A DNA stretch of 64,000 nt. Source: Torpedo marmorata. Lineage: Eukaryota. Positions 2,316 to 49,621 of this stretch are shown here, piece by piece. Below the pieces are notes generated by a model that ran no database searches, was not told the DNA's origin, and was given only the letters and a program-made list of their open reading frames with translations. Each line of letters opens with the position of its first letter. Within the stretch, counting starts at the first letter, position 1. The translations under genes and the position numbers were made by a program. The stretch spans positions 154,256,001 through 154,320,000 of the forward strand of contig OZ360225.1 in assembly GCA_977017645.1 (NCBI GenBank). The letters are read 5' to 3'.

Positions 2316-3880
2316 AATTTGAAGTTCTTGACCCTCTCCAATACTGAGTCCTCAGTGAGGACTGGATCGTGTTCTCCTGACTTCCTCCTGAGGACCACAA
2401 TCATCTCTTTGGTTTTGCTAATGTTGAGCGCAAGGTTGTTGGCATGACACCACTCAACGAGCTGATCTCTCTCATTCCTGTACTCTTCCTCATTGCCGTT
2501 TGTGATTCTGCCGACAACTGTGGTGTCATCGGCAAATTTGTCGAGAGCATTGGAATTGTGCCTGGCCACACAGTCATGGGTATATAGTCATGGGATAAGC
2601 ATGCATCATTGAGGTACGCCTGTGTTGATAGTCAGTAATGAGGAGACGTTGTTTCCAATTCGTACTTACTGTGGTCTTCCGATGAGGAAGTTAAGGATCC
2701 AGTTGCAAAGGGGTTGCAGAGGCCCAGGGTTTGGAGCTTCTTGACGAGCACTGCGGGAATAATGGTATTGAAGGCTGAGCTGTAGTCTATGAAGAGCAGC
2801 CATATGTATGAATTGCTGTTTTTGAGGTGATCCAGAGCTGAGTGGAGAGCCAGCGATATTGCATCTGCTGTGGAGCAATTGTGACGATAGGCGAATTGCA
2901 GTGGGTCCAGACCTTTGCTTAGGTACGTGTTAATTCTGGCCATAACCAACCTCTCAAAGCATTTCATCACAGTAGATGTTAGTGCTACTGGGCGATAGTC
3001 GTTGAGGCAGCTCACACTGCTCTTCTTGGGTACCGGGATGATTGATGCCCTTTTGAAGCAGGTGGGAACCTCTGACTGCAGCAATGAGAGGTTGAAAATG
3101 TCCGTGAACACTCCGGCTTGTTGGTTGGCACAGATTTTCGGTACCCTGACAGGTACGCCGTCAGGGCCTGATGCCTTACGAGGGTTCACCCTCCTGAATG
3201 ATGTTCTGACGTCGGCCTCAGAGACAGATATCACAGGGTCCTCAGCCTTTGCAGGGATTGTAGTAGGCACTGTTGGGTTCTTCTTCTCAAAGCAGGCATA
3301 GAAGATGTTCAGCTCATCAGGTAATGAAGCATCACAACTATCTATGGTATTCGCCCTTGCTTTGTAGGCTGTAATGGCCTGCATTCCCTGCTATAGCTGA
3401 CAATAATCTGTCTCTGTCTCCAGCTTCCTCTGGAATTTCAACTTTGCTTCAGAGATAGCCTTCCACAGGTCGTATCTGCACTTCTTGTAGAGATCTGGAT
3501 CTCTACAAGATCTTTTTATAAGTTTGTGGATGATGTGAACATTGGTGATGTTTTGGATAGGAAGGAAATTTGTCTAAGACTACAGCACAATACAGATCAG
3601 TTGGATGGAGCATTGGCAGATGGAATTTAATCCCAAGGTGATGCATTTTGGGAAGTCAAATTGGATAGGACATATAAAGTAAATGGCAGGGCACTAAGGA
3701 TTAACAGAGACCCAGGGGTCCAAGTCGATAGTTGCTGAAATTATGAAACACAGATCGATGGCTGGTAAAGAAGGCTTACCTTCATAGGTTGGCTTTTAGG
3801 TTATAAAGTTGTAATGTTATGTTGCACCTTTACAAAATTCTGGCCAAGCCACATTTAGTATTAGGCATGTTGACAATGTG

Positions 3881-11608: not shown

Positions 11609-12585
11609 CAAATTGGAAACAACGTCTCCTCCTCACTGATTATCAACACAGGCGCACCCCAAGGATGCATGCTTAGTCCACTGCTCTACTCGTTATACAT
11701 CCATGACTTGTGTGGCCAGGCACAATTCCAATGCCATCTACAAGTTTGCCGATGACACCACAGTTGTCAGCAGAATCACAAACGGCAATGAGGAAGCGTA
11801 CAGGAGGGAGATAGATCAGCTCGTTGAATGGTGTAATGACAACAACCTTGAGCTCAACGTCAGCAAAACCAAGTAGATGATTGTGGACTTCAGGAGGAAG
11901 TCAGGGGAACATGACCCAGTCCTCATCGAGGGCTCAGTAGTGGAGAGGGTCAAGAACTTCAAATTCCTGGGTGTCAACATCTCCGAGGATCTGTCCTGGA
12001 GCATCCACGTTGATGCAATCACAAAGAAGGCTCGTCAGCGGCTATACTTTGTGAGGTGTCTGTGGAGATTCAGTATGTCACCGAAGACTCTCGTAAACTT
12101 CTACAGGTGTACCTTGGAGAGCATTCTGGCTGGTTGCATCACTGCCTGGTATGGAGGCGCCAACTCTCAGGACAAGAGGAAACTCCAGAGGGTTGTTAAT
12201 TCGGCCTGTGACATCACAGGCACGAAACTTCACTCCATCGAGGACATCTACATGAGGCAGTGTCTTAAAAAAGCAGCCTCTATCCTCAAAGACCCCCACC
12301 ACCCAGGCCATGCCCTCTTCACTCTGCTTCCATCGGGAAAAAGGTACAGGAGCCTAATGACGAGCACTCAAAGGCACAAGGACAGCTTCTTCCCCGCTGC
12401 CATCGGATTCCTGAATAATCAATGAACCAAAGACACCGCCTTACTTTTCGTGCACTATTATTTATAATTTTTATAGGAATGTCGTAAGATGGTTAATATG
12501 AATGTTAATTGCACTATGATGCTGCCGCAAAACACCGAATTTCATGACTTGTTCATGACAATAAATTCTGATTCTGATTCTGATT
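11609..12585 (+). mobile_element. Rex1/Babar-type LINE 3' part
   Basis: [17 protein letters not shown] and DSFFPAAI; (ATTCTG)n tail. Confidence 0.92.
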
Positions 12586-13739: not shown

Positions 13740-14948
13740 GAATCAGAATCAGAATTTATTGTCATTAACAAGTCACGAAATTTGGTGTTTTGCGGCAGCA
13801 TCATAGTGCAAACATTCATATAAACCACTTTTACAACAATAAATTTAAAAAGATAGTGCACGAAAAGTAAGGCAGTGTTTTTGGTTCATTGATTATTCAG
13901 GAATTTGATGGCAGCGGGGAAGAAGCTGTCCTTGTGCCGCTGAGTGCTCATCTTTAGGCTCCTGTACCTTTTTCCCAATGGTAGCAGAGTGAAGAGGGCA
14001 TGGCCTGGGAGGTGGGAGTCTTTGAGGATAGAGGCTGCTTTATTAAGACACCGCCTCTTGTAGATGCCCTCGATGGAGTGAAGTCTGGTGCCTGTGATGT
14101 CGCAGGCCGAGTTAACAACCCTCTGGAGTTTACTCTTGTCCTAAGAGTTGGCGCCTCCATACCAGACAGTGATGCAACCAGCCAGAATGCTCTCCACGGT
14201 ACACCTGTAGAAGTTTTCAAGAGTCTTCAGTGACATACCAAATCTCCTCAAACACCTCACAAAGTATAGCCGGTGGCGAGCCTTCTTCATGATTGCCTCG
14301 ACGTGGAGGCTCCAGGACAGATCCTCGGAGATGTTAAAACCCAGGAATTTGAAGTTCTTGACCCTCTCCACTACTGAGCCCTTGATGAGGACTGGGTTGT
14401 GTTCCCCTGACTTCCTCCTGAAGTCCACAATCATCTCCTTGGTTTTGCTAATGTTGAGCGCAAGGTTGTTGGCATGACACGACTCAACGAGCTGATCTAT
14501 CTCCCTCCTGTATGCTTCTTCATTGCTGTTTGTGATTCTGCCGACAACTGTGGTGTCATCGGCAAATTTGTAGATAGCATTGGAATTGTGCCTGGCCACA
14601 CAGTCATGGGTGTATAATGAGTAGAGCAGTGGGCTAAGCATGCATCCTTGAGGTGCGCCTGTGTTGATAATCAGTGAGGAGGAGACATTGTTTCCAATTC
14701 ATACGTACTGCGGTCTTCCAATGAGGAAGTCAAGGATCCACTTGCAGAGGGGGGTGCAGAGGCCCAGAGTTTGGAGCTTCTTGACCAGCACTGGTGTTGA
14801 AGGCTGAGCTGCAGTCGATGAAGAGCAGCCGTATGTTTGAGTTGCTGTTTTTGAGGTGATCCAGAGCTGAGTGGAGAGCCAGCGATATTGCGTCTGCTGT
14901 GGAGAGATTGTGGCGATAGGTGATTGTGACGATAGGCGAAATGCAGTG
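13740..14948 (-). mobile_element. Rex1/Babar-type LINE 3' part
   Basis: ORF 14141-14641 ([13 protein letters not shown]...[10 protein letters not shown]); (ATTCTG)n tail at 13740. Confidence 0.92.
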
Positions 14949-15521: not shown

Positions 15522-16262
15522 ATGGAGAACATCTTGAGACCAGACAAACTGGACATCGACCCACAAACACCGGAAGCTGGCAATGCCTTCGAACTCTGGC
15601 TAGTCTGTTTTGAATCGTTCCTGGAGGAGATCAAAGTGCAAGAAGACGCCGCAAAACGCAAGGTCCTCCTCTCCAGGGTAAGCCCACGAGTCTACTCTAT
15701 GATCCGAGATCTACAGACTTATGAGGATGCGATGAATACACTTAAAAGACAGTACATACGGCCTGTAAATACCGTGTACGCAAGACACAGGCTAGCGACG
15801 CGGCAGCAGCGGCCCGGGGAGTCGAGCGCGGAGTTCGTACGGGCCCTACAAACACTCGTGCGGGCGTGCGACTGTCGGGGACTGACGGCTGAACAGCATG
15901 CAGAGCTCCTAGTGAGAGACGCTTTCGTTACGGGGACCAGGTCACTGTATGTGCGCCAGCGGCTGCTGGAACAAGCTGACCTTACCTTCCGTTCCGCGAT
16001 CGAACTGGCCGACACGCTGGAGGCCGTGCTACAGAACTCGGATGCTATCCAGGCGCGCGATCTCCAGCAGGCCCCGTGGATGCCGCCGACCCCCCACCAT
16101 GCCAGTGAATCGACCACTGCGGCCATCAGTCGCGAGCCCCAGAAATGCTATTTCTGCGGGCTTGAGAAGCACCCCCAGAAACGTTGCCCGGCCCGAGAAG
16201 CGACCTGCTCCAGCTGCGGGAAGAAAGGCCACTTCGCTAAGGTCTGTCGATCTAAACCGTGA
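15522..16262 (+). pseudogene. gag: Gypsy Gag with two CCHC-type zinc knuckles
   Basis: CYFCGLEKHPQKRC and CSSCGKKGHFAKVC; the terminal TGA is CGA in copy 2, so gag-pol was probably one ORF. Confidence 0.88.
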
Positions 16263-19200
16263 GCGGGATCGAGCAGCGCCGCGTGCGAGACGCGGGGTGG
16301 CCATTTTGTGTGTCGTCACTTCCGTCTCTGCCATCTTACCTACCCGCCGCCGCGGCCAACACGTGCAAGGTATGGGGGCGGCCATCTTGTGTTTCGTCAC
16401 TTCCATCGCCGCCATCTTACCTACCCGCCACCAACACTTGCGAGTCATGGGAGCGGCCATTTTGTTCCACGCCGACGAGTTGACACAGGGTGCCGCTATC
16501 CCGGGACAGCGGGCACTCCATCGCGACGTCGGATCAAGACAGTGACCCAACGTTGGCGTCAGTTACACTCGACCAGAGTGCACCCCACCAACTCGCGAGG
16601 TCGATGATGGACATTCTGGTCGAGGGACACAGGACAAACTGCCTGTTCGACACAGGCAGCACAGAGAGCTTCATCCACCCTGACACGGTACAGCGATGCG
16701 GCCTCACGACACAGCCGGTAAGCCAGAGGGTTGCCATGGCTTCCGGGTCGCACACAACAGACATCCGGGGGAGTTGTGTAGCAACGATAGTGGTACAGGG
16801 CACGGAATACCGGGACTTCACGCTATTGGTCATGCCCCGACTGTGTGCACCTGTACTAATAGAGCTCGACTTCCAGAGTCACCTCCAAAGTGTGACTATG
16901 GAGTATGACGGGCCCCTCCCACCGATTACTGTCAGTAATCACCAATTCCTTCAAAACAGCAAGAATATTTTGTCACCCCACACTACTTGCGGTCTATCCA
17001 CCCTCAAGATCCCGCCCCCATCGCTATTCGCCAACCTGACCCCTGATTGTAAACCTGTGGCAACCAAAAGCAGGAGATATAGCGCAGGGGACAGGGCATT
17101 CATTAAGTCAGAGGTGCAGCGGTTATTTGGGGAAGGGATCATCGAGGCGAGCACAAGTCCCTGGAGGGCCCAGGTGGTTGTCGTCAAGAACGGGGACAAA
17201 AACAGGATGGTGGTAGATTATAGTCAGACCGTCAATAGGTTCACGCAGCTTGACGCGTACCCTCTACCACGCATTGCAGATATGGTAAACCAGATAGCTC
17301 AGTACAAGCTCTTCTCCACCATAGACCTCAAATCTGCCTACCACCAGCTCCCCATTCGCCGGGAGGACTGCCCCTACACCGCCTTCGAGGCGGGCGGCAG
17401 ACTCTATAATTTCCTGCGCGTTCCCTTTGGGGTCACAAATGGGGTATCCGTCTTCCAGAGGGAGATGGACAGGATGGTGGACCAATACAAATTAAAAGCC
17501 ACTTTTCCATACTTAGATAACATCACCATCTGCGGTCACGACCGCCAGGACCACGGTAACAATCTTCGGAAGTTCCTCCAGGCGGCCAAAGCGCTTAACT
17601 TAACCTATAACAAGGATAAGTGCGTGTTCGGAACCACCCGATTCGCTATCCTGGGGTGTGTTGTGGTGAACGGGGTCATCGGCCCCGACCCCGACCGCAT
17701 GCGCCCCCTGTTGGAACTACCGCTTCCCCACACCCTCAGAGCCCTCAAAAGGTGCTTGGGCTTCTTTTCTTACTATGCTCAATGGGTCCCTAATTATGCG
17801 GACAAGGCCCGCCCCCTTTTCAAGTCCACCACTTTTCCCCTTGCAGCGGAGGCACGTGAGGCTTTCAGCCTCATAAAAGGGGATATTGCTAGAGCAGCAT
17901 TGCACGCGGTGGACGAGTCCACTCCCTTCCAAGTAGAGAGTGACGCGTCCAACTTCGCACTGGCTGCTACCCTCAACCAGGCGGGAAGACCAGTGGCGTT
18001 CTTCTACCGTACACTTCAAGGCCCAGAAATTCGGCACTCAGCAGTGGAGAAAGAGGCCCAAGCCATAGTGGAAACTATCAGGCACTGGAGGCACTACCTC
18101 ATCGGAAAAAGGTTTACCCTGCTGACTGACCAACGCTCAGTCACATTCATGTTCAGCAACCAGCAGCGGGGTAAAATCAAAAATGATAAAATCCTGAGGT
18201 GGAGAATCCAACTCTCCACCTACAACTACGATATAATGTACCGGCCCGGGAAGCTCAATGAGCCCTCCGACGCTCTATCCCGGGGGACGTACGCTAGCGC
18301 ACAGATCGACCGGTTATATGCCCTCCACTGTGACCTCTGCCACCCCGGAGTCACCAGGCTTTTTCACTTTGTGAAAGCCCGTAATCTACCGTACTCCCTG
18401 GAAGAGGTCAGGACGATGACCAGCAGCTGCCAAGTCTGCGCAGAGTGCAAACCGCACTTCTACCGTCCTGACAAGGCACAGTTGATAAAAGCAACCCGCC
18501 CATTTGAGCGACTCAGCGTCGACTTTAAGGGCCCCCTTCCCTCCACCGACCACAATGTGTACTTCCTCAACATTATTGATGAGTACTCGCGGTTCCCTTT
18601 CGCCATTCCCTGCATCGATACCACGACCACCTCAGTCATAAAGGCCCTCCGCAAACTCTTCACGTTGTTTGGATACCCCTGCTATATCCATAGCGACCGA
18701 GGGTCCTCATTTATGAGTGACGAGCTGCGACAATATCTGCTGGCCAAGGGTATCGTGACTAGCAGGACCACGAGCTATAACCCACAGGGTAATGGACAAG
18801 TGGAGAGGGAGAACGCCACGGTCTGGAAAGCCACACTCTTAGCCCTCAGGTCTAAGGGATTACCAGTCTCCCGTTGGCAAGAAGTCCTTCCCGAGGCACT
18901 CCACTCTATCCGATCCCTGCTATGTACATCCACCAATGCTACACCTCATGAGAGACTCTTTTCCTTCCCCAGGACGTCGACCACCGGGACTACCCTACCA
19001 GCATGGCTGATGTCCTCAGGGCCAGTGCTGCTCCGGAAACATGTCAGGAGCAATAATTATTATTACACGCGAACTCCCAGTACGCCTACGTGGTTTTTCC
19101 TGATGGGCGGGAAGACACGGTCTCCATCCGGGACCTGGCGCCCGCAGGAGCACTGGAACCCGCCGCTGCCCTCGAACACCCCGTAGTTACTCTTACCCCC

Positions 19201-25592: not shown

Positions 25593-28500
25593 TTTTTTTT
25601 TTTTTTTTTTTTAATATTTTATTTAAATTTTTAAATCACACATTACATAATATAATTCTACATATAATTCTTAAAAACTTACATGTGATTACATTTTCTC
25701 CCCCCTCCTTCCCACCCTCCCCTCCCTAACCCCTATATCCCCCTAGTCTAAATTTAAAATAAAATAAAATAATAAAAGAAAAGAAAAGAGAAAAGATAGA
25801 AAAATAGAGAAATAGAGTGAGGAGTCAATAAGCTTAAAAAACTAATATATCTTAGAGGTTATTTCGCCAGCAGATCTGATATCCAGAGAATTTACAGTGT
25901 TAAACCCATAATCCTCATATATGGGCCCCAAATTTTCAAAAAGAAATGATATTTATTTCGTAAATTATAAGTAATTTTCTCTAATGGTATACATGACCGT
26001 AACTCTGCATGCCATCGCTCTAAATTTAAATCAACATCCGATTTCCAAGTAATAGCTATACATTTTTTTGAAACAGCTAATACTATACGTAAAAATTCTA
26101 CTTGATACATATTTAATCTATGTCTAATACTAAATTTTTTAATATCTCCAAATAAAAATAACATAGGATCCATTGCAATTTCAACATTAAAAATTCTTTC
26201 TAAAAAATTCTTAACTTTCAACCAAAAATCTTGAATTTTTGAACATGACCATGTACAATGTGCGAAAGATCCTATTTCAGTTTTACATCTAAAACACATA
26301 TCTGATAACGCTGGATTAAATTTTTTTAATTTTTTAGGTGTCAAATACAATTGATGAAAAAAATTATATTGTACCAATCTATATCTCACATTAATGACTT
26401 TTGTCATACTTAATTTACATAAATCTTTCCAATGATTTTCATCTATATTAACATTCAAATCTAATTCCCATTTCAATCTGGACTTATGCACTCCTACTTT
26501 AGACATCTTTCTTTGGAACAACTTATACATTTGTGAAATAAATTTATTAACATTGACTTTAGTAATTAATAATTCCAATTCATTTTGCCCTGGTGCTGTT
26601 AATTCATTCCCTAATCTTTCAATCAAAAAAGCTTTAACTTGAAAATAAACTAACATTGTATTATCCAATATATTAAATTTTTCTTTTAACCTCTGGAAAG
26701 TAATAAATCTACCTGCTTCAAAACAATCTTTTAAAGTCTTAATTCCCTTTAAAAACCATAACTTAAGTAACTGATTATCCATAGAAAATGGTAAAAGCGG
26801 ATTCTGATATATTGGTGTATTTAAAGAAATTAACCCTTTTTGACCTATCTCTTTGTCTACTTGTGACCAAATTTCCAACAAATGTTTAATAATTGGTGTA
26901 TTTTTCTTTTTAAGTAATAATAATTTAGAATTCCATTTATAAATAATATCTTCTTTATGTATTTCTCCCATATTATTCAATTCTATATTAATCCAAGCAG
27001 AAGATTTATTTAAATCAAAGAATTCATTAATAAATTTTAATTGGGCCACTTTATAATAATACTGAAAATTAGGAAGTTGTAACCCTCCCATCTCATAATT
27101 CCATGTTAATTTATCTATACTTACTCTTGCCAACTTTCCTTTCCATAAAAATTTCCTAATAATAAATTTTAAATCTTTAAAAAATTTATTTGGAATACCA
27201 TAAGGAATCGATTGAAAAAGATATTGAATTCTTGGAAAAACATTCATTTTAATACAATTTACTCTTCCCATCAAAGTTATAGGTAAATCTTTCCAAAGCT
27301 CTAAATCTTTTTTTATTTTCATAAATAAAGGAATCTTGACCACCCAATGGAATTAGAAAGAGCACACAGGATTGGAAGAAGAAATCAGGGCGATCGGAGA
27401 CCGCGTCCAGTTTTGATGAAGTGTCTTAGATATCAAGATAGGGAAAAAATTTTAAAAATGGCAATTCAAAAAGCACGAGAAAGTAGGGGGCCGTTGATGA
27501 TAGAAGGAAATAGAGTTCTTTTCTATCCTGATTTAAGTCCAATGGTGGTCAAGCAACGGAAAGAATTCAACCCTGCAAAGGCTATATTGTGGGAAAAAGG
27601 ATACAAATTTTCGTTTAGGTATCCAGCGGTTCTGAGGATCCAAGATAATGGTGATACGTTTTTGTTATTCAAGAATCCTGATCAGGCTCTTTCTCATGCT
27701 AATGGTCTTCAACGTCGGGCAAGAAGTTTTTTGGATTCGGTTGAACAACAAGATCGGAATAATCAAGCAAGTCGCGGAGATATGGTACCCGGTCCGTCAA
27801 GAGAAAATATCCGAATTCAAGCTGGAGAAGAATTGGAGGATTCAACTGTGTGAAGAGTTGACTGAATGTATATGTTGGACAAATATATATCTGTTGGGGG
27901 GAGGTGGTTTGTGGAAACTTCTTCCGAAGCAATCACCACCTTAGCAGCGAGAGCTGCTTCTCGAGCAACAGAGGGGGGTAGCACTGGGAGTAGAAGACCA
28001 GTGTTTTTTTTTTTATAGGGGGGTTTTCTTTTCTTTTACTTCTATCTTTCATTCTAGTTGAGGAGGAAATGTATTTACGACAGAGTAAGAGGGAAACGCG
28101 GGTGGATTTGATTAACAGGGAACAGTTACTATTTGATTATGGGAGATTCTAAGAGTATAAACTTAGTAAGTATTAATATAAATGGGCTTAATAACCCAAT
28201 TAAGAGAAAACGGACTTTGGCATATATTAAAAAGTTGAAAGTAGACATAGCTTTTTTGCAGGAAACTCATCTGACGGATATTGAACATCAAAAATTGAAA
28301 AGAGACTGGGTAGGACATGTTATAGCGTCGTCATTTAATTCTAAAGCTAGAGGAGTAGCTATTTTAGTAAATAAAAAGTTACCTTTTAAGATACAATCGA
28401 CAGTGATTGATACGGCAGGAAGATATGTTTTGGTATATTGTCAAATTTATTCAGAATTTTGGACTCTTATGAATTTATATGTGTCAAATCCTGATGATGA

Positions 28501-29461
28501 ACAATTTATTCAAGATGCTTTTTTACATTTATCAGATGCTAAAGAGAATATTTTAATTGGTGGAGATTTCAATTGTTGTTTAAATCCAATTATGGATAAA
28601 ACTTCGAAAACATCTGTTAGACCAAAAATAGTTAAAAAAATAATTAATTTGATGGAGGATTTGAATTTGGTGGATATTTGGAGAAAGTTGAAACCTAGAG
28701 AGAAAGATTATTCATTTTATTCATTTAGACATCATTCTTTTTCTAGGATAGACTTGTTCTTATTATCTTCACAAGTTCAAGATAGAATAACACAGATATC
28801 TTATAAAGCAAGAATAATTTCAGATCATTCACCTTTATTAATGACATGTATAATTCCAGAGAAGGAAAAAACTGTATATAATTGGAGATTTGACTCTTTT
28901 TTATTGAAAAGAAAGGATTTTTGTGAATATATGAGACGAGAAATACAGGAATTTTTAAGAATAAATAATAATTCGGTTAATGATAAATTTATGGTATGGG
29001 AAGCTTTGAAAGCTTATTTAAGAGGTTTAATAATAAGTTATTCAGTAAAGATAAAAAAAGACTATTTGAAAGAAGAGGAAAAATTAGAGAAGGAAATTGA
29101 ATTTATGGAAAAGGATTTACAGAGAAATAAGTCTATTCTTAAGAGGAATCGTTTAGTAAGGAGGAAATTACATTATAATTTATTACAAACACGTAAGACT
29201 GAAAAGTTGATAACGAGAACAAAACAAAGATATTATGAATTAGGGGAAAAGGCACATAAAGTTTTATCATGGCAATTGAAAAAAGAACAAGTTTCTAAAA
29301 CTATTAATGCTATAAGGAAGAGAAATACTGGAGAAATAACTTATAAGCCACAAGAAATAAATGACTCTTTTAAAGAATATTATCAGAACTTATATAGATC
29401 TGAGGTTGATCATGATGATATGAAGATTAATAGATTTTTATCTAGAATTACTTTACCTAAA
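25593..29461 (-). mobile_element. L1 with 5' inversion: 3' segment on minus (25593-27334), ORF1 end-spacer-EN segment on plus (27335-29461)
   Basis: Poly(T) at left; 15-bp TSD ATGAGGGGCATGGTT (25578-25592, 29462-29476); ORF2 C-terminus (CFRC...HCTWSC) on minus; ERAHR/YPDLS and APE motifs (NINGLN, LQETH, GGDFN, ISDH) on plus. Confidence 0.93.
27891..28014 (+). ncRNA. Putative structured RNA in the L1 inter-ORF spacer
   Basis: Stems, a GAGA tetraloop and a hairpin-U tract are retained with compensatory changes at 48084-48203. Confidence 0.55.
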
Positions 29462-31597
29462 ATGAGGGGCATGGTTAAAGTGAATGTTCCCAGTCTTTTT
29501 CCCATTGAAGACAATTATAGAACTAGAAGTCATAGGTGAGGGGGAGTGAGTTAAGAGAGATCTGAGGGACAACCTTTTCACTAAAAGGATAAACTGTAAC
29601 TGGAATGAGCTATCAGAGGAAGCTTTAAAAACATGTGCAATTATGACCTTCAAAAGACATTTGGACAGATGTATAGATAGGAAGGGTTTAGTATTTGGAT
29701 CAAGTGCAGGCAAATGGGACTATTCCAGATTGTCAAATTAGTCAGCATGAACGAGTTGGGCTGAAGTGCCTGTTCTATGCTGTATGACTGTCTCTATTCC
29801 AGGGCTCTTCTCTGGCATCATTTGCTGAAAGTTTGGCTTCAGTCCTGGTGTGAGTTTTTTTTAACAGCGGGTGAAGAGTTAGGGTTTCTTTTGATTGTTT
29901 GATTCAGGTTTTGGGGCCTTACCCAGACACTTCTTTCACCACAATTGTGTTCACTTTGTAAATAAGTTTTGTGACTTTGGCTATTTCTTGGCCATCATTT
30001 CCAGCTTCATCTTTACCTCAATTACAGAGGATGTGCATTAATTACTGTTTGTACTTGGGGATTAATGATGATTTGATTTTCACTGTCTTCAAAGCAAACA
30101 CCTGATTTATCAAGGCATCCTGGGCACATTTATATTAAATCCATTTTGACTCCATTTGGAGGGAAATTCTCAATGGAAAATCACTTGCAGTTTTCATTGT
30201 TATCTCCCAGTGCGGTTCATCATAATTTCTCAAACCCAAGATAGCAGGCTTTTGTTTCTGTGGCATAGAACATGCAATTAATTTATTTCCCTTTGTGGGT
30301 TGCTCTGACTTGGTTTGACTCCGGTTGTGTAATCTTACTCTCCCCCTTCACATACTCTTAGCGTGACATGCTTGTGTTTCAAGATACTTTCACCTTTTTC
30401 GAGCTTTACAGGGAATATCTATTGGTATAAACTGAGTATAAATGATGGGCAAGTATATGAGATTAGTTTGCTTCATTTCCTTCTTAAGATCAGGATAATC
30501 ATGTGTTTCATTTCTGTCACCTCCGGTTACTCCATGCAGATGAATGGTTCCAATATGTAGTTTGAATCCAAACTTGCTGACACCTTCCATGCTTTGGATG
30601 TTCTAGTTTTGATTCTTGTGCATGGGCCCTTCTGTCTTTCTAACCTTCTTTAATTTGTTCTGTATCGACTTCCTTTCAATTTGCACAAACGTTGAGCTTG
30701 CTGTGGAACAACCTGTGATTTTTTTTCTCTGTGAATTTGGGACAATTTTAGGAAATCTGTGATGTCAGCTCTAAGTGATGTTGGCAAACATTAGTGCAAA
30801 CACAAACCTGCCATTGCCATTTTAAATAATTTTCCAAAAAAGTAATTACACTGAAATGCTGTGTTAATCGTATTACTGGGAAAATCAGCAGGATCCCACA
30901 ACGAACATGGAATGTACACCAATTTTTGTTGGTGTTGCTTAAAGGAAGAATATTGCCCAAAACTTCAAGAGGACTCTCTTTGCATCTTTCAGTAATGTAA
31001 TAGGACTTGTCATTTCCCTGTAAATCATACAAATGGGTCTTAGCAAAACAACTCATCCAAAGGATGACAGTTCCATTAATATCATCACTGTGGTGAAGTA
31101 TCATGACAGAATATGCTCTGGAATTGAACTTGAACTCCAAGCATTACAGCCTAACTATGAGAATGCTTCCAACTGTGACATGTCGACTGACAAATCGGGC
31201 TATATTTCACTCGTTTTAATTTAGTGACGGTTCATTTATATTCTGTTACAGTGCTTATGTGGTTGAGAAAAACCAGCTGCATTTCAGATCTTTTTACCAA
31301 GTTGCAGTCTTGAAAGAGAAATAATTCAAATTTTAAAAACATTGCAGAACTGGTTCATTTTGTATGTGACTGACTGTCCTATTTTAACTTAAAGGCCAGT
31401 TACAATCAGTTCTAATCCTGCTTAGGTTGAATATTAAGTGAATTGCATTTTTTTGTGGAAATATAATTTGAAATACAGACAGTTTGAGAAATATAACATT
31501 TTCTTAAATATCAATGAAAATCTTCAGGAAATGCATCCGGTGGAAAATGAATGAACCTGACAACAATAAACGCAGAGAAAATGTATTTATATTTCTC

Positions 31598-35752: not shown

Positions 35753-38700
35753 TGATGAGCCCATCAATAACTCCAAAAGACTAGAAGTTACACAAGAACT
35801 GAAAGGCTTTTATTAGCAAAAGAATGGAGCTACATTCGTGCTGGTGATCTGTCCCGGACTGGGGGAGGAGTAGTGGCACAATGGCCTTTATTCAGGGGAT
35901 CTGTGGGAGGAGCCACCGGGACAGTCAGCAGGGGCATGTCCAGACCTATCACCCAGCCCACAACCCATACATAGTGGTTTACCACATTCACCCCTCCTTT
36001 TTAAAAGAGTCCAGCGGGGTGAAGGGTATAACAATATTTACAAAGAATTAAAATTACAAATCGAGTCGATCAGGCGGTCGAGTCCATCGCTGCAATCGGC
36101 GCAGTACTTGTGGTGATGGGGCAGGTGGCGGTGCTGCCTCCTGCCTGATCTGTGGTACCGGCACGTCTGGCGATCGCGAAACCTCAGATGAATATGCCGG
36201 TACGTTTGGTGTCGTGTTTGAATTGGGTGGTGCCTCTTGTGTGTCCTTAATGGTAGGTAAGGGGGTAACAGTAACTACGGGGTGTTCGAGGGCAGCGGCG
36301 GGTCCCAGTGCTCCTGCGGGCGCCAGGTCCCGGATGAAGACCGTGTCTTCCCGCCCATCAGGAAAAACCACGTAGGCGTACTGGGGGTTTGCGTGTAATA
36401 ATTGGACCCTCTCGACCATTTATTGCTCCTGACATGTTTCTGGAGCAGCACTGGCCCTGAGGACGTCAGCCATGCTGGTAGGGTAGTCCCGGTGGTCGAC
36501 TTCCTGGGGAAGGAAAAGAGTCTCTCATGAGGTGTAGCATTGGTGGATGTACATAGCAGGGATCGGATGGAGTGGAGTGCCTCGGGAAGGACTTCTTGCC
36601 AGCGGGAGAATGGTAATCCCTTAGACCTGAGGGCTAAGAGTGTGGCTTTCCAGACCGTGGCGTTCTCCCTCTCCACTTGTCCATTACCCCGTGGGTTATA
36701 GCTCGTGGTCCTGCTAGTCGCGATACCCTTGGCCAGCAGGTATTGTCGCAGCTCGTCACTCATAAACGAGGACCCTCGGTCGCTATGGATATAGCAGGGG
36801 TATCCAAACTATGTGAAGAGTTTGCGGAGGGCCTTTATGACTGAGGTGCTAGTGGTATCGGGGCATGGAATGGCAAAAGGGAACCGCGAGTACTCATCAA
36901 TAACGTAGAGGAAGTACACATTACAGTCGGTGGAGGGAAGGGGGCCCTTAAAGTCGACGCTTAGTCGCTCAAATGGGCGGGTTGCTTTTATCAACTGTGC
37001 CTTGTCAGGACGGTAGAAGTGCGGTTTGCACTCCGCGCAGACTTGGCAGCTGCTGGTCATCGTCCTGACCTCTTCCAGGGAGTATGGTAGATTACGGGCT
37101 TTCACAAAGTGAAGAAGCCTGGTGACTCCGGGGTGGCAGAGGTCACAGTGGAGGGCATATAACCGGTCGATCTGTGCGCTAGCGCACGTCCCCCAGGATA
37201 GAGCATCGGAGGGCTCATTGAGCTTCCCGGGCCGGTACATTATATTGTAGTTGTAGGTGGAGAGTTCGATTCTCCACCTCAGGATTTTATCATTTTTGAT
37301 TTTACCCCGCTGCTGGTTGCTGAACATGAATGCGACTGAGCGTTGGTCAGTCAGCAGGGTAAACCTTTTTCTGGCGAGATAGTGCCTCCAGTGCCTGATA
37401 GCTTCCACTATGGCTTGGGCCTCTTTCTCCACCGCCGATTGCCGAATTTCTGGGCCTTGAAGGGTACGGGAGAAGAACGCCACCGGTCTTCCCGCCTGGT
37501 TGAGGGTAGCAGCCAGTGCGAAGTTGGACGCGTCACTCTCTACTTGAAAAGGAGTGGACTCGTCCACCGCGTGCATTGTTGCTCTGGCAATGTCCCCTTT
37601 TATGAGGCTGAAAGCCTCGCGTGCCTCCGTTGCAAGGGGAAAAGTGGTGGACTTGACTAGGGGGCGGGCCTTGTCCGCATAATTAGGGACCCATTGAGCA
37701 TAGTAAGAAAAGAAGCCCAAGCACCTTTTGAGGGCTCTGAGGGCGTGGGGAAGCGGTAGTTCCAACAGGAGGCGCATGCGGTCGGGGTCGGGGCCGATGA
37801 CCCCGTTCTGCACAACACACCCCAGGATAGCGAGTCGGGTGGTTCCGAACACGCACATCCTTGTTATAGGTTAGGTTAAGTGCTTTGGCCGCCTGGAGGA
37901 ACTTCCGAAGATTGTTATCGTGGTCCTGACGGTCGTGACCGCAGATGGTGATGTTATCTAAGTATGGAAAAGTGGCCTTTAATTTGCATTGGTCCACCAT
38001 CCTGTCCATCTCCCTCTGGAAGACGGATACCCCATTTGTGACCCCAAAGGGAACGCGCAGGAAATGATAGAGTCTGCCGTCCGCCTCGAAGGCGGTGTAG
38101 GGGCGGTCTTCCCGGCGAATTGGGAGCTGGTGGTAGGCAGAATTGAGGTCTATGGTGGAGAAAAGCTTATACTGAGCTATCTGGTTCACCATATCTGCAA
38201 TGCGTGTTAGAGGGTACGCGTCTAGCTGTGTGAACCTATTGACGGTCTGACTATAAACTACCACCATCCTGTTTTTGTCCCCGTTCTTGACAACAACCAC
38301 CTGGGCCCTCCAGGGACTTGTGCTCGCCTCGATGATCCCTTCCCCAAGTAACCGCTGCACCTCTGACTTAATGAATGGCCTGTCCCCTGCGCTATATCTC
38401 CTGCTTTTGGTTGCCACAGGTTTACAATCAGGGGTCAGGTTGGCGAATAGCGTTGGGGGCGGGATCTTGAGGGTGGATAGACCGCAAGTAGTATGATGTG
38501 ACAAAATATTTCTGCCGTTTTTAAGAAATTGGTGATTACCGACAGTAATCGGTGGGAGGGGCCCGTCATACTCCATCGTCACACTTTGGAGGTGACTCTG
38601 GAAGTCGAGGCCCAGTAGTACTGGTGCGCACAGTCGGGGCATGACCAATAGCGTGAAGTCCCGGTATTCCGTGTCCTGTACCACTATCGTCGCTACACAA

Positions 38701-40166
38701 CCCCCCCGGATGTTTGTTGTGTGCGACCCGGAAACCATGGCAACCCTCTGGCTTACCGGCTGTGTCGTGAGGCCGCATCGCTGTACCGTGTCAGGGTGGA
38801 TGAAGCTCTCTGTGCTGCCTGTGTCGAACAGGCAGTTTGTCATGTGTCCCTTGACCAGGATGTCCATCATCGACCTCGCGAGTTGGTGGGGTGCACTCTG
38901 GTCGAGTGTAACTGACGCCAACGTTGGGTCGCTGTCTTGATCCGACGGCGCGATGGAGTGCCTGCTGTCCCGCGATAGCGGCACCCTGTGTCGGCTCAAT
39001 GGCGTGGAACAAAATGGCCGCTCCCATGACTCACACGTGTTGGCGGTGGGTAGGTAAGATGGCGGCGACGGAAGTGACGGAACACAAGATGGCCGCCCCC
39101 ATACTTCGCACGTGTTGGCCGCGGGTAGGTAAAATGGCAGAGACGGAAGTGACGACACACAAGATGGCCGCCCCCAAGCCTCGCATGCGGCGCTGGTCGA
39201 TCCCGCTCGCGGTTTTGATCTACAGACCTTAGTGAAGTGGTCTTTCTGCCCGCAGCTGCAGCAGTTCGCTTCTCGGGCCGGGCAACCTTTCAGGGGGTGC
39301 TTCTCAAGCCCGCAGAAATAGCATTTCTCGGACTCGCGGCTGATGGCCGCAGTGGTCGATTCACTGGCATGGTGGGCGACATCCACGGAGCCTGCTGGAG
39401 ATCGCTCGCCTGGATAGCATCCGAGTTCTGTAGCGCACCCTTCAGCGTATCGGCCAGCTCGATCGCGGAATGGAAGGTGACGTCAGCTTGTTCCAGCAGC
39501 CGCTGGTGCACATACACTGACCTGGTCCCCGTAACAAAAGAGTCTCTCACTAGGAGCTCTGCGTGCTGTTTGGCCGTCAGTCCCCGGCAGTCGCACGCCC
39601 GCACAAGTGTTTGTAGGGCCGCTGCTGCCGCGTCACTAGCCTGTGTCTCGCATATACGGTATTCACAGGCCGTATATACTGTCTTTTAAGGGTATTCATC
39701 GCGTCCTCATAAGTCTGCAGATCTCGGATCATAGAGTAGACTCGTGGGCTTACCCTAGAGAGGAGGACCTTGCGTTTTGCGGCGTCTTCTTGCACTTTGA
39801 TCTCCTCCAGGAACGATTCAAAACAGGCTAGCCAGAGTTCGAAGGCATTGCCAGCTTCTGGTGTTTGTGGGTCGAGGTCCAGTTTGTCTGGTCTCAAGAC
39901 ATTCTCCATGTTTACAATTTTGCCAATAAAATTGATTAGCCCATCAATAACTCCAAAAGACTCGAAGTTACACAAGAACTGAAAGGCTTTTATTGGCAAA
40001 AGAATGGAGCTACATTCGTGCTGGTGATCTGTCCCGGACTGGGGGAGGAGTAGTGGCACAATGGCCTTTATTCAGGGGGTCTGTGGGAGGAGCCACTGGG
40101 ACAGTCAGCAGGGGCATGTCCAGACCTATCTCCCAGCCCACAAGCCATACATAGTGGTTTACCACA
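35753..40166 (-). mobile_element. Gypsy LTR retrotransposon copy 2 (4414 bp)
   Basis: LTRs at 39933-40166 (5') and 35753-35986 (3'), 234 bp each with 7 differences; TSD GGTAT (35748-35752, 40167-40171); polypurine tract. Confidence 0.97.
36054..39909 (-). pseudogene. Gag-Pol of Gypsy copy 2, frameshifted
   Basis: ORF pieces at 39577-39909, 39290-39604, 37683-39386, 36809-37858, 36275-36763 and 36054-36419 match copy 1. Confidence 0.92.
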
Positions 40167-41275
40167 GGTATCGTCAGTGAATTTGTAGATGGTGTTGTTG
40201 TCATACTGAGCCACACAGTCATAGGTGTAAAGTGAGTAGAGCAGGGGGCTAAGAATGCAGCCCTGTGGTGCTCCAGTACTGATGGAGATTGTGGAGGAGA
40301 TGTTCTTACCAATCCTCACTGATTGTGGTCTCGAGGTGAGGAAATCAAGGTTCCAATTGCACAGTGAGGTGTTGAGTCCTAGGTCTTGAAGTTTGCTGAT
40401 CAATTTTGAGGGGATGTTGGTGTCAAATGCCAAACTGTTGTCAATAATGAGCATCCTGATGTATGCATCTTTACTGTCCAGGTGTTCCAGGGATTTGTGT
40501 AGAGCCAGTGAGATAGCATCCGCCGTAAACCTGTTGCTACGATAGGTGAATTGGAACGGATCCATGTCACCCCTCAGACAGGAGCTGATATGCTTCAACA
40601 CCCGCCTTTCAAAACACTTCATCACTGTTGATGTGAGTGCCACTGATCGATAGTCATTTAGGCAGCTTACCACACTCTTTTTGGGCACCGGTATGATTGA
40701 CTCCTGTTTGAAACAGGTGGGTACCACGCCCTGCCGGAGTGAGATGCTGAAGATATCCGTGAATACGTTGGTAAGTTGGTCTGCACAGATTTTTAATACT
40801 CGGCCGGATACTCTGTCCAGACTGGATGCTTTCCTTGGATTCACTCTCCTGAAGGCAGCCCGCACATCATTCTCGGATATGGACAGGAGATGATCATCAG
40901 GGGACGTGAGAGTGCGCAGTGGTGGTTCTTTCTTGTTCTTGTAGTTGAATCTGACATAGAAGGCATTGAGTTCATCTGGGAGTGAAGCTTTGCTGTCTCC
41001 TACTGCACTGGATTTGGTTTTGTTGCAGGTTATGTCATTTAGGCCCTGCCACAGCTGTTGGGTATCCTTCGTTGTTTCCCATTCCCATTAGCCCATCCTC
41101 TCCCTCTATTTACACAGTATAGTGACTTGGATATATTTGCATGTTTGTTCATTTGTACCTGTTTAAAATACTGAAGTCATATGTAACAATGGACATATCA
41201 CTTAAAGAAGTTGATCCATTACTACATTGCTAAGATCGATGACGGATAGGCAATAAATTCCAGTCTTCCATCCAA

Positions 41276-42665: not shown

Positions 42666-44180
42666 ATACTTGTATATTATACAGTGTGAAAGACCTTTCA
42701 GATAACTAAATGCATAAGAAGTGTTTCTAAACAAGAAAAAAATAGATGAATAATTTTGAGATAAAATGAAGAACAGTAATGAAAACAAAGATAGCATGGG
42801 TGATAATGTGCTTGGTAGTTTGAAAGTTTGCAGTCATGAAACCAATCTGTAATAACCTGAGTGAAAGGTAAACATGCATAGAAGTCAACATTAGACCAGA
42901 CATGTCACTCAGTTAAATCAAATGCAAATAAGTTCTTTTATCTAAATCACTTGAAGATACCAAAGGCAGATTTACAAACACACTCAGGGAGTAAGGTGGC
43001 TGCTGTTTGCAATGACTCTGAATGTCCAGCTGTGCAAACAAGAGCAATAAAAAAATCCATGATGTTTGGCAAAGATAGTTTACAATGGTGTGCAAATTTG
43101 AATGATATTAATTTCCTCCAGTTGACAAGAATAAAGCTGCTGGAAAGACAAGAAAAATGTATTTTGAGAGGAAAGGCAAAAATGCAAGCAATAATGAAAA
43201 AAAACCCAATATGTTATATACTTTGTCCAAATTAAATATGCTACATCTTGTTTCCCCTGAATGAGGGAAGAGTGCACAGAAGAGTGAAGAGAATAGAAGA
43301 GTGCGGTAATTATTCCTAGGGTCAATTCAATTGGTGCAGTCCACATCTATCAATATGGCATAATCTCTGTTATTTCCATATTTTATGTGCATTTTATGTG
43401 GTGCCTTAGCATTCAATAAGGTGCTGCATAAAGACTTATCTATAAGGTAATGATGTATGAAATTGGAGGTAATGTATTGGCATGGATAAAGGATTGGTTA
43501 GCCAAGAAAAGGCTGAGAGTTGGGATAAATGGGTGTTTCTCTGGTTGGCAATCGGTGTTGAGCAGAGTACCACAGAGATTGGTGTGAGGCCTGCAACTGT
43601 TCACACTTAGGAAGAGGGGACTAAGTGTAGCATATCTAAATTTGCTGATAACATTAAATTGAGTGGAAAAGCAAAATGTGCAGAGAATACTGAGAGTGTG
43701 CAGAGTGATATAAGATAGGTTAATAGAGTGGGCAAGTTTCTGGCAGTTGGAGTACAATGTTGGTAAATTCAAGGTCATCAAATTTGGAAGAAAAAATAGC
43801 AGCTCACATTATTATTTAAATGGTAAAAGATTGCACTCTGCTGTTGGGCAGAGGGAATTGGGAGTGCTTGTGTATGAATCATAAAAGATTTTTTTTTTAA
43901 ATAATTTTATTTAAATTTTTAAAATCACAAAATACATAAATCAAAAATACTATATCATTCCAAATACATGTGATATATTTCCTCCCCCCTCCCACCCTCC
44001 CCTCCCCAACCCCCCCAGCACTATTCTAAAAAATAAAAAAAAATTAGTTATAAAGAAAAAAAAAGAAAAGAATTGAATAATAAAGAATTAAAGAATTAAA
44101 GTGAGGAGAAAACAAATTACAAGCTAAATCTATTTATATATTGGAGGTTCGTTTTGCCAGCGGCACCGACTTCTAGAGAA

Positions 44181-47100: not shown

Positions 47101-47962
47101 CCCAAATTATAAATTTATCATTAACCGAATTATTATTAATTCTTAAAAATTCCTGAATTTCTTTTCTTATATATTCACAAAAGTCTTTTCTATTTAATAA
47201 AGAAGAATCTAATCTCCAATTATATACAGTTTTTTCTTTCTCTGGAATTATACACGTCATCAATAAAGGTGAATGATCTGAAATTATTCTTGCTTTATAA
47301 GATATTTGAGTTACTCTATCCTGAATTTGTGAAAATCTCAAAAACAAATCAATCCTAGAAAATGAGTTATGTCTAAAAGAATAAAATGAATAATCTTTTT
47401 CTCTAGGGTTTAATTTCCTCCAGATATCTACCAGATTCAAATCTTCCATTAAATTAATAATTCTTTTGACTATTTTAGGTCTAGCAAATGTTCTAGTAGT
47501 TCTATCCATGTTCGCATTTAAACAACAATTAAAATCTCCACCAATTAAAATATTTTCCTTAGCCTCAGATAAATGTAAAAAAGCATCTTGAATAAACTGT
47601 TCGTCATCCGGATTTGTAACATATAAATTTTAAAAAGTCCATATTTCTGAATAAATTTGACAATGTATTAAAACATATCTACCAGCTACATCAGTCACTA
47701 CTGATTGTATTTTAAATGGTAATTTTTTATTAACTAAAATCACTACACCTCTCGCTTTAGAATTAAAAGATGAAGCTACTACATGTCCCACCCATTCTCT
47801 TTTTAACTTTTGATGTTCCTTATCAATCAAATGTGTTTCTTGTAAAAAAGCTATATCTACTTTCAATTTCTTAATATATGCCAAAGTTTTTTTCCTCTTA
47901 ATTGGATTATTAAGACCATTAACATTAATACTTACAAAATTTATACTTCTAGAATCCACCAT
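44181..47962 (-). pseudogene. L1 ORF2 (APE endonuclease, RT, Cys-rich C-terminus), disrupted
   Basis: NVNGLN, LQETH, ISDH, YRPISLLN, LDAEKAFD, RQGCPLSP, LFADD and CFRC...HCTWSC in several frames. Confidence 0.93.
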
Positions 47963-48083
47963 AAATAAACTTTAGACATTCTCTATCTGTCAGATCCGCT
48001 AGCATTTCCCTCCTAATCTGTTGACCACATATTTTCTCCTCAAATAGAATAGAAAACCAGAAAAGTAAGAAAAAATACCCCAT

Positions 48084-48203
48084 AAAAAACACCGGATTAT
48101 GTACCCCAGTGTCACCCCCCTCCGTCGTTCGAGAAGCGGCTCTCACCGCTAAGGTGGTGATGGTTTCGGAAAAAGTTCCAATGAGTCCACCTCCCCCCAA
48201 CAG
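48084..48203 (-). ncRNA. Putative structured RNA in the L1 inter-ORF spacer (second copy)
   Basis: Covaries with 27891-28014. Confidence 0.55.
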
Positions 48204-48226
48204 ATAATTATTTATACAGCTTATAT

Positions 48227-49621
48227 TCAATTAACTCCTCCCAAATCTTCACGTTCTCCTTCAGCTTGAACCAGAACAGCTTCTCCAGTTATCGAACCAG
48301 GTATCTCGATATCCAGACTTGTCTGACCTTCTTGCTTTTGTTGATCAGAGACCAAAGGAAACTTTCTTCTCAGACGCGGAAGATTTCTTGCATGAAAGAG
48401 AGCTTGCTCAGGATCCATAAATAGTAAAGAATTCTCACCATCATTTTGAATCCTCAAAATCGCCGGATACTTAAACGAAAATTTATAACCTTTATCCCAC
48501 AGTACTGCCTTTGCAGGATTAAATTCTTTACGTTGTTTGACCACCATAGGACTTAAATCAGGATAGAAGAAAACTCTACTGTCTTGAATCATCATCGGAG
48601 CCCCGTGATCCCGTGCATGTTGGATCGCTGATCTTAAAATTTTCTCTCTATCTTGATACCTTAAACACTTTATCAAGATTGGACGCGGTCTCCGATCTAG
48701 CTGATTTCTTCTTCCAATCCTATGGGCTCGCTCAAGCTCCACTGATTGGTCAAAATCGAAAATCTGTTTCAACCAATCTTGAAAAAATTGAGTTGTATCT
48801 AAAGTTTCAATATTTTCAGGTAGTCCCAATATTTTCACATTATTTCTGCGACTTTGATTCTCCATCTGATCTATCTTCTGTATTAATTGATCTCTTTGCT
48901 TTTCCCAACCAACAAAAGTATCTTCCATTTTATCCACTCTATCTCTACAGTCTTCAACTTCATGCTTGTTACTTTCAACTTCCTCTTCTATTTTCTTAAC
49001 TCTGACATCTACTTTACCTATAATATTTTCCATTTTTCCCATGTTCTGTTTCATTTCTGTAAATTCATCTTGTATTTTTTGTTCAAGCTTACCAATAGCC
49101 ATATTAAGTTTTACTTCCATTTTTCCTTCTAATTTAACAATAGCTTGTAAAATACTCTCTTGGCTGTTTTTTACTAACCAGAGTTCTCTCAGTACTTCAT
49201 CCTGGTAAGTATCATATTCTTCAATGTCTTCTCCTTCCAGCTGGCTATCTTCTTTCTCCCCTTCTGATTCTGACGATGATTTAGGCTTCCCAGCCTGTAG
49301 TTTAGTCTGGGGAGCCTCCGTTGACGTCATCCTGGCCTCCTCAAGTTGGCTTTCCAAATCGGAAATCCTGCGCATGCGCGTTTGTTCATCTGTTCTTCTT
49401 GTAGTTTTAGGTCGGGCGCCGGCGCCATCTTCCGCAGCTCCCTGCGGAGGTAGCGTCGGCGTTCCCGACTCACTAGAACGTCGTCCATATCGCTTACCGG
49501 GCTTCACCAGTAAGGCAGTCCCAGGCTCCATCTCTAAGGTAGGCCTCTTTTCTTCTTGTAGTAGAACTGTCTGTATCATAGGTTTTTTAACTTTCTGGTC
49601 CTTCGTTTTTCTACCAGCCAT
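48227..49621 (-). CDS. L1 ORF1p, intact 464-aa reading frame
   Basis: Coiled-coil region, RRNNVKILGLPE, ERAHR, YPDLS and YPA motifs. Confidence 0.9.
   Translation of the reverse strand: MAGRKTKDQKVKKPMIQTVLLQEEKRPTLEMEPGTALLVKPGKRYGRRSSESGTPTLPPQGAAEDGAGARPKTTRRTDEQTRMRRISDLESQLEEARMTSTEAPQTKLQAGKPKSSSESEGEKEDSQLEGEDIEEYDTYQDEVLRELWLVKNSQESILQAIVKLEGKMEVKLNMAIGKLEQKIQDEFTEMKQNMGKMENIIGKVDVRVKKIEEEVESNKHEVEDCRDRVDKMEDTFVGWEKQRDQLIQKIDQMENQSRRNNVKILGLPENIETLDTTQFFQDWLKQIFDFDQSVELERAHRIGRRNQLDRRPRPILIKCLRYQDREKILRSAIQHARDHGAPMMIQDSRVFFYPDLSPMVVKQRKEFNPAKAVLWDKGYKFSFKYPAILRIQNDGENSLLFMDPEQALFHARNLPRLRRKFPLVSDQQKQEGQTSLDIEIPGSITGEAVLVQAEGEREDLGGVN

Follow-up and report, generated by a model that had tools for sequence, protein, structure and literature searches.

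How ribosomes cross the long spacer to L1 ORF2, and why long L1 spacers persist though they are inhibitory in human cells, are presented as open questions in the spacer-related sections of PMC4072516, PMC5381506 and PMC3894237. The question is raised again by two L1 copies in the 64,000 nt stretch of DNA analysed here (the window). An earlier note on this sequence had described paired stems in the ORF1-ORF2 spacers of both copies and had suggested a site of internal ribosome entry (IRES) or a reinitiation element, an attenuator or a ribozyme. All of the quoted stems are present, at 27891-28014 (+) in the first copy (copy a) and at 48084-48203 (-) in the second (copy b), 125 nt before ORF2. The region is a GC-rich island, as had been claimed, with a GC content of 0.51 and 0.54 in copies a and b, respectively, against 0.41 and 0.37 in the flanks of copy a. 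Comparison across L1 families demonstrates a conserved, covarying RNA structure in the L1 ORF1-ORF2 spacer.

Copy a is a 5'-inverted L1. A plus-strand segment (27333-29461) comprising the ORF1 end, spacer and endonuclease lies head-to-head with a minus-strand segment (25602-27334) that carries the 3' part of ORF2 and the 3' UTR, and ~1 kb of ORF2 is absent. The 3' part of ORF1 occupies 27347-27853 (+), its stop codon lying 43 nt upstream of the first G-run of the spacer, and the N-terminal, endonuclease part of ORF2, interrupted by the inversion, occupies 28139-29539 (+). This arrangement fits twin priming; no target-site duplication was detected in the stretches examined. Copy b has an ORF1 of 464 aa at 48227-49621 (-). 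Both spacers belong to young, high-copy L1 families, with 1785 and 1872 candidate spacers in the 6.2-Gb vertebrate genome; identity was 99-100 % among the best 40 of the 1785 and among the best 40 of the 1872. The nearest named relative of ORF1 is from a ray (39 %), while those of ORF2 are from teleosts (48 % and below), making a cartilaginous fish the probable host. For a sample of greater divergence, 355 ORF2 starts with their upstream DNA were collected by pattern, protein and Pfam searches and grouped into families a to q, the endonuclease N-termini of which are 57-98 % identical to that of family a. Eight usable fish-type L1 loci from metagenome assemblies were added.

In copy a (+), the element begins with the 5' strand of a clade-specific outer stem, a first G-run (G1) and GGTGG (27890-27907; one-sided changes only), followed by an inner domain (27908-27941) that is variable and contains CCACCT and a stretch of pyrimidines. 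Hairpin P3 (27943-27958), with two-sided covariation and a variable loop, has 6 bp here and 7 bp in families d, i, j and k. It is joined by a connector of fixed length (27960-27978) to hairpin P4 (27980-28005), which has 8 bp and a variable loop, and beyond P4 are a T run (11 T in copy a), a third G-run and a pyrimidine tract (28004-28056). The connector is free of gaps in an alignment of 16 families and consists of a pyrimidine triplet (the C-run), a purine, seven bases, GA and a second G-run (G2) with an invariant GGG; the upstream G-run starts 67-78 nt 5' of it in most families. The structure is located 35-350 nt downstream of the ORF1 stop and 125-200 nt from ORF2.

Covariation was scored on a MAFFT alignment of 16 family representatives that had been fitted to no structure. 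In P3 and P4 together, 90.4 % of cells were paired and 10 of 15 pairs showed two-sided change (6 of 7 in P3 and 4 of 8 in P4). Pairing in slid controls was 26-55 %, and none of 500 shuffles scored as high, in a control that ignores kinship among the 16 families. The six core pairs of P3 were kept in 95 of 96 cells across the 16 families, with ~9 independent two-sided changes by parsimony on the endonuclease tree. When P3 was searched for genome-wide as a pattern with four free positions per arm, there were 5094 matches and none for the reversed control. By eye, all four pairs were kept in 98 of the first 100 matches listed, which comprised several sequence types. A pattern requiring a pyrimidine at stem position four of P3 had no match. 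G-U pairs were frequent and A-C pairs few on the sense strand, which points to RNA. The sense strands folded better than shuffles, with z-scores of -2.8 and -2.7 for the first and second copies; the scores on the antisense strand were -4.1 and -0.4. The earlier claim that substitutions in the stems preserve pairing is thus confirmed for P3 and P4, where the larger alignment contains covariation; no two-sided change was found in the closing stem, GGGA/TCTC or GGTGG/CCACC.

A descriptor of the hairpin-connector-hairpin arrangement, written after the sequences had been seen, matched 20 of 23 families from the same genome and two of eight metagenome loci, with 0.9 matches expected from shuffles. 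A covariance model built on the 16 families recovered families b2 and j2 at 75-77 bits and family h weakly, at 14 bits; the copy b element scored 75 bits (48082-48155), this copy being in the training set. Families f, l, m, n, p and q and the metagenome loci were not found with the model, and homology for these is assigned by the descriptor. For 24 distant families taken jointly, the 5' domain could not be aligned and RNAalifold therefore gave no consensus. A single apparent compensation, in family l, was accounted for by CpG decay.

Several parts of the proposed structure are limited to the clade of the window's copies. The three-way junction described from the two copies was recovered there as an RNAalifold consensus, whereas in a second clade (families d, h, i, j and k) the consensus consists of hairpins in series, the C-run being paired with the downstream GGG. 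The closing stem CTGTTG/CAACAG, GGGA/TCTC and GGTGG/CCACC were 89-98 % paired in the window's clade, and the closing stem and GGTGG/CCACC were unrecognisable in more distant families. Three further features do not hold generally: the GNRA loop of P3 is replaced elsewhere by GAGG, TAAG, TTTA or AGAA, GGAA/TTCC is not conserved across families and the T run is absent or broken in most of them. The C-run can pair with either G1 or G2 in nearly all families. Pairing with the upstream G-run was found in 92 % of cells against 19-64 % in slid controls, with 4 of 25 rows mis-anchored and several registers possible, while single-sequence ensembles more often favoured the downstream G-run. The C-run possibly pairs with one or the other, or with both as a switch.

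One frame of the spacer is free of stop codons up to the ORF2 start and the other two are closed within ~30 nt. In copy b this hidden frame has 93 codons on the minus strand (47949-48230); it opens at a TTG overlapping the ORF1 stop, closes 11 nt inside ORF2 and has its sole AUG before the last 15 codons at 48083. In copy a the frame through the spacer is broken because of the 11-T run, leaving a relay ORF (ORF-X) of 27 codons in the -1 frame at 28069-28152 (+), which stops 11 nt downstream of the first base of the ORF2 AUG. The frame was open for at least 90 nt in 63 of 66 copies of family a, 11 of 11 of b, 9 of 10 of c1, 29 of 32 of g, 15 of 19 of m and 20 of 22 of n. The median copy had at least 50 open codons in 23 of 28 groups from the same genome and in five of the seven metagenome loci scored, a length reached in 1-26 % of trials by composition-preserving windowed shuffles; these frames ended about -13 to +14 nt from the ORF2 start, and any frame entering the A-rich ORF2 soon meets a stop by chance. 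As an illustration, 19 copies picked for contiguity, one per family, had all 1485 codons of this frame free of stops, whereas the other two frames contained 91 and 131. Random placement of the observed substitutions would keep the frame open in all 19 with a joint chance near 1e-21, a value inflated by the picking.

The peptide of the relay frame drifts, without selection on the peptide itself: pN/pS, 0.18 for the endonuclease, reached 0.84 in the folded part, 0.80 in the tail and 0.75 in the T-rich part, and pS was 0.23 in the folded part against 0.40. None of 17 relay peptides had a Pfam match below E 0.019. A protein-coding third ORF was rejected on the values of 0.75-0.84 and the lack of a credible Pfam match. 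Readthrough or frameshifting from ORF1 was also rejected, given the in-frame stops after ORF1 and a relay frame that differs among families. The relay stops lie at +11, +8, +5, +1, -7, -9 and -10, and thus in all three frames relative to ORF2, so that no single frameshift can be common to them; this fits a stop-restart mechanism. By eye, a spacer of the same layout, with 56 open codons from an AUG into the ORF2 start in the -1 frame, is seen for zebrafish L1-8 in the supplementary sequence from PMC5381506.

The position of the relay AUG was compared with that of the fold by taking the first AUG from 36 nt before the C-run onwards. Its position relative to the C-run was -31 (family f), -28 (d, i, j and k), -27 (n) or -25 (l and m), which in most cases places the first AUG of these distant families ~10 nt before P3, and intact copies read from it to the coupled stop. 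A downstream shift is seen in the window's clade, where the relay AUG lies at +8 (in the connector), +50 or about +100-110 past the C-run and is still the first AUG after P3. Of 111 copies from four young families, 105 can be read from this AUG to the coupled stop (61/66 in a, 2/2 in a3, 11/11 in b and 31/32 in g). For all anchored copies the figure is 149 of 253, a set in which older copies have decayed and family h is mis-anchored (1/20). Of 16 relay AUGs, 14 have a purine at -3. The ORF1 stop is separated from ORF2 by a variable distance, about 270-600 nt, which indicates that the position of the fold follows the relay ORF rather than the ORF1 stop. Retention of the fold where the AUG has moved away indicates that it does more than present one AUG.

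From these sequence comparisons, the reading we prefer, at a probability of about 0.48, is that the fold at the head of the relay ORF loads or holds ribosomes, which would translate the relay ORF and then restart on ORF2. In this account ribosomes would enter at the fold or be retained there, and initiation at the first AUG would be followed by 27-93 translated codons and then, at the overlapping stop-start site, by termination-reinitiation on ORF2. The fold would set the entry point, and the 40S subunits may come from ORF1 termination or be recruited afresh. We infer that the relay frame is translated. A spacer frame that stays open and ends at the ORF2 start points to reinitiation through the relay ORF and away from an IRES placed directly on ORF2. 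A conserved structure with a probable part in ORF2 translation, as first suggested, is supported. A doubtful extension is that the fish-lineage L1 mRNA is tricistronic, with a landing element (its GGG contacting the 40S subunit and its C-run switching between G-runs) that would feed the relay ORF independently of ORF1, and then ORF2; such an arrangement may persist in teleost L1s. The combination of a covarying fold, a fixed AUG position and a frame ending on the ORF2 start is testable by point mutations with compensatory rescue. With families a, b and g all young, and with an ORF2 of 1272 codons intact in many copies of family a, this can be done directly, without sequence reconstruction.

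The probability is held to this level, with a role independent of initiation as the main rival, by the moved AUGs and by three lineages in which fold and frame are less tightly joined. Of 36 family-a copies chosen without regard to spacer identity, 28 keep the frame across the T run, but the 11-T sub-lineage (22 of the 30 copies nearest to the window copy) has lost the frame through the element and still multiplied. In family g that frame is contiguous in one of 33 copies, yet the family multiplied. Of 31 copies of family q, 21 have a long frame (not significant), and the family had no descriptor match, so fold and frame can come apart. According to the rival account the fold would bind ORF1p, ORF2p or a host protein, or serve in localisation or protection from decay, and would merely overlap the relay ORF. 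Besides family q, it draws support from the fold being retained where the AUG has shifted far downstream, and the three G-runs could bind G-run proteins. The near-fixed distance of the AUG before P3 in eight distant families and an element that tracks the relay ORF rather than the ORF1 stop make this account unlikely, if still a serious competitor.

If the fold and relay ORF instead formed a brake, an upstream ORF overlapping ORF2 would divert ribosomes and keep ORF2p low, with ORF2 reached by leaky scanning. The frame does overlap the ORF2 AUG out of frame in families a to g, l, m and n, and the megabat intergenic region (IGR) is inhibitory overall in the data available from PMC4072516. In families d, i1 and j, however, the frame stops 7-10 nt before the AUG and so would not block it. 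Megabat L1 activity also fell when the IGR AUGs were removed (about 3.3-fold less retrotransposition; PMC4072516, in the experiments on the megabat element), which goes against a brake, a reading that we regard as improbable. The intact IGR performed 8.8-fold better than a shuffled IGR (PMC4072516), and both results favour the relay reading. The same text reasons that small IGR ORFs help reinitiation.

The preferred reading, with restart after the relay ORF, can also be set against a classical IRES starting ORF2 directly, independently of ORF1 and the relay ORF. Most long L1 IGRs are scored positive by IRES predictors, and a mouse L1 IRES reported by Li 2006 is cited, in the relevant part of PMC5381506. 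The dicistrovirus-like IRESs predicted there for vertebrate L1 IGRs concern the same region and question, but they are single-sequence software predictions within 10 nt of the ORF2 start, whereas the present element is based on covariation and lies further upstream; that text states that no structure common to the IGRs was found. Against direct initiation, one to several AUGs intervene between element and ORF2, the first of them in the relay frame. The fold, not recognised when it was first described, also had no counterpart in Rfam: apart from one chance hit of 13 bits, the window had no match at E up to 10, and there was none for eight other loci at E up to 1, so an Rfam IRES match is absent from both. 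Dicistrovirus IGR IRESs have three pseudoknots and a non-AUG start codon directly after PKI; the present element is 125-200 nt from ORF2 and the relay starts with AUG in 16 of the 16 copies listed. HCV-like (type IV) IRESs have a GGG loop in IIId, a GAYA hairpin in IIIe and a pseudoknot ~11 nt before the AUG. Here the P3 loop is variable, and the likeness is a loose one, consisting of the invariant GGG and, by eye, a helix end 11-12 nt before the AUG in families i, j and k. A classical IRES on ORF2 is accordingly given little chance.

Another use of the G-runs and pyrimidine tract would be as splice signals for an ORF2-only mRNA, and many families do have a pyrimidine tract followed by AG 70-100 nt before ORF2. 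The base at -3 is usually G or A, against C or T in normal acceptors, and two-sided covariation would be left unexplained. In a set of 170 copies chosen by endonuclease, similarity ends within 330 nt of ORF2 in 44, at scattered positions with no common junction; six breakpoints at -305/-306 probably reflect divergence from the reference copy. Splicing is therefore very improbable. A self-cleaving ribozyme or transcription attenuator, suggested by the compact GC-rich fold, is the least probable reading, given the lack of an Rfam match, the variable loops, the scattered 5' breakpoints (none shared among the 170 copies that could mark a cleavage site) and a T run that is not conserved, the U run expected right after the hairpin of an intrinsic-terminator-like attenuator being interrupted or missing in most families. 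HDV-like ribozymes are carried by other non-LTR elements; no covariance-model match to the HDV-like, twister, hammerhead, pistol or hatchet classes was found in the window (E up to 10) or in the eight loci (E up to 1), and ribozyme catalytic cores, looked for by eye on the alignments, were absent.

Termination-reinitiation through the relay ORF has closer parallels, described for TURBS, SART1 and L1 in the sections of PMC5972666 and PMC3894237 on reinitiation. Mammalian L1 ORF2 needs an upstream ORF that terminates nearby (Alisch 2006, as cited in PMC5972666 and PMC4072516), and IGR AUGs of the small megabat ORFs raise activity (PMC4072516, in the text on these ORFs). The fish-type elements differ from what is described there in having one frame open across 20-odd divergent families, headed by a covarying fold. 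SART1, another non-LTR element, needs a structure downstream of its stop-start site (PMC5972666), and RNA structure past the ORF1 stop aids the next initiation (Kojima 2005, as cited in PMC5972666 and PMC3894237). As summarised there, SART1 is spacerless and couples ORF1 directly to ORF2, whereas here the coupled start would be that of the relay ORF. In calicivirus and influenza B TURBS, as outlined in PMC5972666, stop and restart codons are a few bases apart in any frame; the present fold, 125-200 nt upstream, lacks a conserved UGGGA.

With respect to the features of TURBS, the stop and restart sites overlap or lie within about 30 nt of each other, the relay stop being at about -13 to +11 in most families. 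For motif 1, a UGGGA located about 40-80 nt ahead of the stop-start site in TURBS, an exact UGGGA occurs near ORF2 in families d, j, m and p and AGGGA or GGGGA in a to g, h and i, while there is no GGGA before ORF2 in c2, f1, f2, k and q. GGGA is 39-58 nt upstream of ORF2 in many families, and the site in the window (28087-28095) is at a TURBS-like distance from the relay stop; this motif is not part of the fold reported here. The element itself, at 125-200 nt from ORF2, is too far away for a canonical TURBS. It would work like known reinitiation aids, is a member of none of those tested and had no match in Rfam or the literature searched, and it would add an RNA family absent from Rfam. Titles and abstract openings, searched outside the subscription journals and Repbase reports, contained no description of the fold or of a conserved relay ORF in fish L1.

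Other observations were made on individual spacers. Two features noticed by eye, a K-loop in the connector and a pseudoknot in families d, i and j, are not general and were set aside; the loop of the 5' hairpin may pair in a pseudoknot with bases around the relay AUG (L304, L306, L307, L245 and L142), and one pair of this candidate is G-U, G-C and A-U in three j families (by eye). Family q (L272 and relatives) is a distant L1 with a different GC-rich spacer segment and a long frame ending at ORF2. In a single copy of family k (L322) the relay frame is in frame with ORF2, lacks a stop and is open for 342 nt, and family h (L224 and L239) seems to carry GTG where ORF2 usually starts. Two forms of overlap occur at the ORF1 stop in the window's clade, TTGA (a2, b and c1) and ATGA (c2, e and g), for example at 48227-48230 (-) and in L079, L196 and L076. 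The TTG opens the through-spacer frame in b and the ATG a 3-codon ORF in g and c2; this overlap is possibly a second coupling site, or due to chance.

The 3' UTRs of both L1 copies contain a G-rich tract before the poly(A) signal, at 25700-25745 (-) and about 43960-44010 (-), that resembles the spacer G-runs in look. Elsewhere in the window, translations identified other LINE reverse transcriptase (RT) fragments and a DDE transposase-like ORF (2632-3384, 11877-12425, 14141-14641, 40068-40622 and 62490-63266). Two related Ty3/Gypsy-type LTR retrotransposon copies are located at 15522-19186 (+) and 36275-38870 (-), the second fragmented, with a gag-like ORF and with protease, RT, RNase H and integrase recognised by sequence motifs.
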